Positions 15,417 to 15,604 of a stretch of DNA of 64,000 bases are shown here, one piece after another. Every line of letters starts with the position of its first letter. Within the stretch, counting starts at the first letter, position 1. A model generated the notes under the pieces. It saw only the letters and a program-made list of their open reading frames with translations, ran no database searches and was not told where the DNA came from. This DNA comes from Eledone cirrhosa (lineage: Eukaryota). The stretch is taken from the NCBI GenBank assembly GCA_964016885.1, contig OZ024758.1, positions 1,426,001 through 1,490,000 on the forward strand, written 5' to 3'. The position numbers were made by a program, and so were the translations under genes.

Positions 15417-15604
15417 AAAAAATAATCAAAGAAGCCTTCAATACATCAAAAGTCTTTATTAGCCAACAATGTTTCGTCCCATTAATAAGGACTCATCAGG
15501 GCAAGAAAATCTTTTCTTGCCCTGATGAGTCCTTATTAATGGGACGAAACATTGTTGGCTAATAAAGACTTTTGATGTATTGAAGGCTTCTTTGATTATT
15601 TTTT
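15417..15604. ncRNA. Perfect 93-bp-arm palindrome carrying a minimal type I hammerhead on each strand (Penelope-like pseudo-LTR end)
   Basis: Arms 15417-15509 / 15512-15604, 2-nt spacer. Plus-strand HHR: GCC-CUGAUGA(15522)-GUCC uuauuaaug GGAC-GAAAC AUU GUU^-GGC, then AATAAA; (TA)n follows. Confidence 0.75.

Follow-up and report, generated by a model that had tools for sequence, protein, structure and literature searches.

In Penelope-like elements, an inverted 5′-truncated copy, a tail on one side only and insertion into (TA)n targets are standard features (PMC8557442). By 2014, hammerhead motifs had been noted in pairs on opposite strands, 100–700 bp apart (PMC4209133); in Penelope-13_HM, an inverted copy places a hammerhead on both strands (PMC8557442 supplement). 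Head-to-head junctions in rotifer Penelopes have been attributed to self-priming, on the grounds that the junctions are palindromic (PMC3846280). PAc, a Poseidon element from Anolis, shows two internal reverse transcriptase (RT) starts and priming on both strands in vitro (PMC11167929). The origin of the tails and of the inverted ends is still debated (PMC8557442, PMC11167929, PMC3846280). For the Hydra clade, (TA)n is listed as the target of 26 of the 27 families, U occupies the cut site in 10 of the 26 hammerhead rows, and one member, Hydra-1_Obim, occurs in Octopus (PMC8557442).

Here we describe a palindrome within a window of 64,000 nt (the whole stretch of DNA that was analysed) from the octopus Eledone cirrhosa. 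We consider it most likely, with a probability of about 80%, that the palindrome consists of two 5′-truncated 3′ ends of one high-copy octopus repeat, placed head to head in (TA)n, and is the dead scar of an endonuclease (EN)-bearing Penelope-like element, probably of the Hydra clade. The head-to-head geometry recurs in the inverted pLTR insertions of Adineta vaga (PMC3846280) and in the opposite-strand minimal hammerhead pairs of Schistosoma (PMC4209133), and so, as far as these sources describe them, do the palindrome at the junction, the one-sided tail and the closely spaced hammerheads on opposite strands. Unlike in these systems, the copies in our window are reduced to their last 100–200 nt, the two motifs face each other at stem I only 16 nt apart, and a target duplication is unreadable within (TA)n, of which no empty allele was seen. 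Penelope-13_HM is a further match, with an inverted 5′-truncated copy and hammerheads on both strands. Head-to-head architecture with hammerheads on both strands is thus already published (PMC4209133; Penelope-13_HM in the PMC8557442 supplement), and as a usual Penelope-like insertion scar the single locus is of little weight. What is new here is the octopus family and a conserved predicted tail hairpin, both small points.

Extent of the palindrome and its hammerhead motifs

A preliminary description of this DNA had claimed a perfect 93-bp palindrome, and the arms at 15417–15509 and 15512–15604 are indeed free of mismatches in the assembly, around a TC spacer at 15510–15511. No comparable structure occurs elsewhere in the window: the runner-up among perfect palindromes with a GC content of at least 12% has 28-bp arms and is a microsatellite, and when 15312–15610 was shuffled 200 times (mononucleotide shuffling), no arm exceeded 11 bp (mean 6.2). 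The 93 bp are a core, and the unit as a whole is larger than had been described, extending from 15312 to 15610 between two (TA)n runs. Followed to their ends, the arms occupy 15412–15509 (98 nt) and 15512–15610 (99 nt) and differ by one base inside an A/T run, and over their full length they are therefore imperfect. The left arm goes on for about 100 further bases within the same repeat family.

The resulting layout is asymmetric. A (TA)24 microsatellite at 15264–15311 forms the left part of the presumed target and adjoins the long arm (15312–15509, minus strand), which we interpret as a 5′-truncated 3′ end of the repeat family with hammerhead and tail, ending at (TA)n, on the basis of read depth and of loose ends in TA runs. 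The tail, of about 100 nt (15312–15411, minus strand), is limited to this arm. The short arm (15510–15610, plus strand) is a second 5′-truncated copy without the tail; it includes the spacer as family sequence on the plus strand and ends at ATAAT adjoining (TA)n. The right part of the presumed target is a TA-rich microsatellite at 15605–15648, which overlaps the end of the arm. Just to the left of the element, two short unique islands (15066–15168 and 15210–15264) lie between TA runs and may represent the outermost 3′ ends of additional elements that target (TA)n.

The hammerhead that had been claimed for each strand is borne out. A strict descriptor of the minimal type I hammerhead, searched on both strands of the 64 kb, matches only at 15522 on the plus strand and 15499 on the minus strand. 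The plus-strand motif occupies 15519–15559, with a GUU cut site after 15556, and the minus-strand motif occupies 15462–15502, with the predicted cut after 15465. Each consists of stem I GCC/GGC, the core CUGAUGA, a 5-bp stem II, GAAA, a palindromic stem III and the GUU cut site; the core is intact and the cut site is of the NUH type, GUU being among the active hammerhead cut sites (PMC3138052). Stem III had been given as AACAUUGUU, and while its near self-complementarity stands, this sequence takes in core A14 and U17, the stem proper being ACAUUGU. Minimal type I hammerheads of this kind within the pLTR, with a palindromic stem or loop III and a G10.1–C11.1 pair, are a feature of EN-bearing Penelope-like elements. 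At the Rfam gathering score there were no matches to the locus; Hammerhead_3 reaches 23.9 bits on each strand, below its cut-off of 48.5, and the microRNA matches, which are all below cut-off, are due to the long hairpin only.

On the plus strand, folding predicts that stem I continues across the spacer (15506–15573, UCUUU/AAAGA, probability 0.91), so that the 5′ truncation falls where this longer stem ends. The AATAAA noted earlier is found at 15561–15566 together with its mirror; its role as a poly(A) signal is unsupported, and it overlaps the predicted stem I extension. Other matches to CTGANGA...GAAA in the window (12 against about 2 expected) fail the strict descriptor. Degenerate motifs resembling the hammerhead core occur at 24280–24303 (plus strand) and 12110–12145 (minus strand). 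A metagenome scan for the hammerhead layout gave one match, on a contig (L001) that we judge to be unrelated, as its DNA is GC-rich and gene-dense, unlike the window; there a minimal hammerhead motif lies at 648–689 on the minus strand between short ORF-like stretches.

The repeat family in sequencing runs

Of 23 sequencing runs, 4 were compared with 15312–15640 (329 bases) at a likeness of at least 80. Two of them (X1 and X2) are contig sets from one sample and two (X21 and X22) are RAD runs from other individuals under the same species label; runs X4–X20, with less than 0.1 of the words, were left out. X1 and X2 contain 0.50 and 0.46 of the sampled words, respectively, and their sample may be the assembly's own source. 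The 329 bases matched 255 and 317 contigs; in the RAD runs, the matching raw reads numbered 1279 (of 12.47 million) and 1236 (of 12.79 million). The maxima of summed word depth are 92,000 and 134,000, compared with 7–31 for 15 of the 16 pieces listed. Although word depth itself is no copy number and the RAD reads are piled, this suggests a family of the order of 10^3 copies or more. The roughly 100 bases to the left of the left arm are as deeply covered as the arms and thus belong to the family.

The ends of other copies agree with those seen here. At the family end near 15315–15319, 212 raw reads of X21 and 140 of X22 pass into TA runs, and two to three contigs of X1 and X2 finish in TA-rich letters at the same end. 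Two X2 contigs from other copies stop, like the short arm, at ATAAT beside a TA run. At the opposite side, each of the four runs has loose ends behind 15504 and 15509, where other copies continue 5′ of stem I with sequence that is not palindromic; the present axis is therefore not a trait of the family. In two X1 contigs and one X2 contig the loose ends start before 15510; all three still match at the spacer and diverge only beyond it, so that TC belongs to the family sequence of the short arm. A dispersed repeat with one or more fixed 3′ ends and variable 5′ truncation is, again, what EN-bearing Penelope-like elements produce. The exact 22-letter pattern of the family had no match in prokaryote genomes and none in viral contigs.

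Three other antisense-to-sense junctions were found in the family. One (15453 to 15569; a single contig at depth 19.2) is symmetric, shares 4 letters and sits at a built-in AAAG-A-CTTT palindrome. The second (15356 to 15536; a single contig at depth 11.4) contains two filler bases, and the third (15461 to 15543) is represented by two reads. Two of the three are asymmetric, with offsets of about 40 and about 130 nt. None of the 16 listed pieces (of 577) spans the present axis with at least 31 letters per side, and 15595–15640 was skipped as repeat. Together with the partial word content of X1 and X2, which may come from the very sample that was assembled, this lack of a spanning contig or read is what could be expected of a fold-back artefact of assembly or library. 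Such an artefact is nevertheless very improbable: the duplication covers only about 100 bp and ends at a natural family end, one base differs between the arms, the spacer belongs to the family, and contigs at depths of 11–19 contain comparable junctions.

The family also provides a view of constraint on the motif. At position 17 the listed variants include U, C and A but never G, as the NUH rule requires (PMC3138052). The U·G pair of stem II seen here is U–A in most family copies, and about half of the copies lack 3 nt of loop II. Among the variants listed, none falls on the 11 core positions, and core and stems together vary at 1 of 27 positions, compared with 29 of 171 elsewhere (Fisher test, P = 0.056); conservation of the hammerhead core and stems in the family is thus only suggestive.

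Where this copy departs from the majority of the family, the two arms mirror each other, as they do at the near-private T15426 (depth at most 49 of 20,659 in X1 and 29 of 18,913 in X2). Both arms must therefore come from one template, or have been homogenised. The insertion had been called very recent, which is more than the data establish: at a rate of 0.0036 substitutions per site per My, derived for octopus from PMC13282606, zero substitutions in 93–98 bp fit an age of up to about 4.3–4.5 My at the 95% level. A very recent insertion is possible.

A further explanation invokes later change at the DNA level. A single insertion could have been duplicated by a template switch in the course of replication or repair, or hairpin-guided conversion could have homogenised an imperfect pair of greater age. 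The unduplicated tail carries the near-private bases T15348 and G15411 (the latter at no depth in X1 and at 13.6 in X2), yet the arms have no substitution between them, which favours such an event. The axis can likewise be viewed as a zero-loop palindrome that lacks its two central bases, which resembles the centre revision of palindromes. A source copy can supply the private bases, however, and the short arm stops at a site that other copies use beside (TA)n, upstream family sequence is absent at the locus, and similar junctions exist in other copies. We regard later duplication or conversion as improbable, though not to the degree of an artefact.

Origin of the head-to-head junction

Several earlier proposals, namely a Penelope-like origin, a dimer-type minimal hammerhead and an inverted pseudo-LTR or fold-back geometry, find support in the family ends at (TA)n, in the other junctions and in the literature. 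The scar was probably produced by target-primed reverse transcription combined with fold-back synthesis. Under the preferred reading of an EN-bearing Penelope-like element, the RT/GIY-YIG protein of the element would nick (TA)n on both strands, and uncleaved RNA would be reverse-transcribed from two internal starts, one just upstream of the tail hairpin and one at the end of the tail. One cDNA would stop just 5′ of hammerhead stem I, fold back and prime a sense copy. The sense copy would then anneal to a cDNA primed on the opposite strand, and host repair would fill the remainder. The bottom strand continues through the family bases GA before it turns, which fits the short arm as the folded cDNA. 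No built-in complement that would explain priming was found at the present axis. PAc (PMC11167929) has much the same attributes as those proposed here: two internal RT starts that define the tail, an AT-rich target nicked on both strands and insertion from uncleaved RNA. It differs in that its ORF begins inside the hammerhead, whereas the ATG at this place in the window reaches a stop after 4 codons.

The junction step itself has a close rival that dispenses with fold-back. Two cDNAs, primed on opposite (TA)n strands from one source copy, could have stopped 2 nt apart and been end-joined or bridged by a template jump. This is a variant within the preferred reading rather than a replacement of it, and we hold it as a tentative account of how the arms were joined. 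The extra family bases expected of the cDNA strand are found on the short arm, but the tail is not, and this calls for a second cDNA in any case. Asymmetry, of about 40 and 130 nt, characterises two of the other junctions, one of which has two filler bases, and end-joining fits them equally well; priming on both strands has been observed in vitro (PMC11167929). On the other hand, independent stops 2 nt apart require a strong RT stop, and the junction at 15453 to 15569 is symmetric at a built-in palindrome. Since the family is abundant and has two mappable 3′ ends, a predicted shared tail hairpin and several different junctions, a junction census could separate fold-back from the joining of two cDNAs.

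Neither an RT nor a GIY-YIG domain was found in 150 window ORFs, which were picked by length and nearness from 343 frames of at least 45 aa that are not of low complexity; this absence is as expected of a truncated copy. In its sequence features, the locus would work like the insertion end of an EN-bearing Penelope-like element. A hammerhead is present on each arm because the motif lies 50–150 nt from the 3′ end of the element, and the two-strand ribozyme would therefore be a by-product of the insertion.

Folding predictions bear on whether this by-product could act. Palindromic stem III marks dimer-type motifs, which cleaved weakly as dimers and not at all as monomers (PMC4209133). The monomer fold predicted here has stems I and II at a probability of 0.99 and stem III at 0.002, and the active-like fold lies 5.4 kcal/mol above the minimum; the stem III self-duplex is predicted at –2.3 kcal/mol. 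Self-cleavage of the monomer is accordingly predicted to be unlikely, which speaks against the proposal that transcripts starting near the axis self-cleave in either direction. Because each strand has just one of the two motifs, any single transcript has one sense copy and no dimer can form in cis. Masking in read-through RNA, also proposed before, agrees with a predicted hairpin of –157.7 kcal/mol that would lock both motifs. Overall, we expect read-through RNA to mask the two-strand ribozyme, and a monomer to have almost no activity.

These predictions also weigh on a functional explanation, by which the palindrome would be a functional or self-propagating mini-element, similar to a retrozyme or a MITE, whose opposed ribozymes cut divergent transcripts or which is a source of dsRNA for editing or for small RNAs. 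In its favour, the two motifs are intact, a perfect hairpin is predicted, and A-to-I editing is heavy in coleoids, to which the host belongs. Perfect hairpins of this kind could serve as substrates for editing or small RNAs in octopus; for the present one, the role with ADAR or Dicer suggested earlier is unsupported. The axis, however, is not common to other copies, the predicted monomer fold is inactive-like, and the locus has no tandem array. Metazoan non-LTR retrozymes (PMC7229834; bioRxiv 10.64898/2026.07.22.740005), as far as these sources describe them, are likewise short non-coding repeats with a type I hammerhead and kinship to pLTRs, but they form head-to-tail arrays of 150–450-bp monomers, in contrast to the inverted pair seen here. 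A search for tandem hammerhead monomers found only microsatellites in 14500–16500 and no same-strand motif pair in the 64 kb. The hammerhead of the related PAc element, moreover, needed protein for cleavage and was dispensable for insertion in vitro (PMC11167929). We therefore consider a functional or self-propagating mini-element highly unlikely, and the insertion scar of an EN-bearing Penelope-like element remains our preferred reading.

Clade, tail hairpin and surroundings

The Hydra clade is delimited by RT phylogeny and by an EN that lacks the CCHH motif. The combination of a (TA)n target and a canonical hammerhead, present here, is a feature of the clade, although not exclusive to it; Neptune elements also prefer microsatellites (PMC8557442). 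In Craig et al. 2021 (PMC8557442), Hydra elements match the locus in the (TA)n target, a hammerhead near the 3′ end, a palindromic stem III and a U, A or C cut site. The distance from hammerhead to end is 87–130 in 12 Hydra families, 152–210 in 11 and 425 in one, and the two ends in the window, at 111 and 210 on the scale of that table, fall in the two Hydra distance groups. Elements of the Naiad clade are without a canonical hammerhead (PMC8557442), whereas the full motif is present in the window. Unlike in Hydra elements, an ORF with RT and GIY-YIG is absent at the element, which is known here from truncated ends alone. The hammerhead sequence is unlike that of Hydra-1_Obim, and the family is therefore a different one. 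Three short motifs from the window had no match in the available PMC8557442 supplement, in which line breaks could hide matches. From these sequence comparisons Hydra is the likely clade, with the ends of Neptune and Poseidon elements lying outside the tail-hairpin comparison described below.

An inverted 5′-truncated copy with a tail on one end only is a further feature of EN-bearing Penelope-like elements that is present here. The tail, at about 100 nt, is longer than the published ones of 30–40 bp (PMC8557442, PMC11167929). It contains a predicted hairpin at 15384–15405 on the minus strand, with a GCUC/GAGC stem and a 2-nt bulge. The hairpin pattern, designed after the data had been seen, has this as its sole match in the 64 kb (0.08 expected). 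Among five family variants listed inside the hairpin, four fall in the loop or bulge and one is compatible with pairing. By eye, a bulged GCUC/GAGC hairpin follows a TATA-rich stretch in three of the six Hydra consensi printed in the PMC8557442 supplement (Hydra-2_Amil, Hydra-2_Ajap and, less well, Hydra-1_Crog); the other three terminate where the hairpin would start. Counted by hand, it lies about 38–47 nt from the cut site in the Hydra consensi, compared with 59 nt here. A literature search that covered few subscription papers and no Repbase reports found neither the tail hairpin nor hammerheads of octopus described.

We put forward, as a speculative proposal, that the bulged GCUC/GAGC hairpin may be a cis-element common to the Hydra clade, in corals, sea cucumbers and octopus, which would bind RT and set the proximal RT start at the TATA-like stretch upstream. 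If true, the tail hairpin, priming on both (TA)n strands and fold-back of one cDNA would make up one mechanism for both tails and head-to-head scars, and the abundance of the octopus family would let this mechanism be read from thousands of junctions. A second predicted hairpin lies near the end of the tail (15326–15350, minus strand); inspected by hand, its pairing is preserved in three of the listed variants, whereas a fourth disrupts the pair at its end.

Elsewhere in the window, an uninterrupted ORF of 442 aa (55595–56920, minus strand) shares 80% identity with a protein of Octopus vulgaris and 74% with one of Argonauta, which marks the window as octopod DNA. It belongs to a mollusc-expanded family that has no Pfam match, some relatives being named nucleotide-diphospho-sugar transferase. 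A C3HC4 RING-finger exon at 36984–37256 (minus strand) presumably resembles the N-terminus of BFAR; no longer relatives of the exon were found at E ≤ 1e-12, and 150 RING proteins mapped to the window gave only the exon at about 37 kb and one weak match. A tandem satellite at 41321–42648 has an alternating spacing of 52 and 56 bp, with 98–99% identity at 160-bp steps. Finally, 51500–55500 is a nearly GC-free block (4.5% GC in 52–54 kb) with nested TA-rich repeats and long imperfect inversions.
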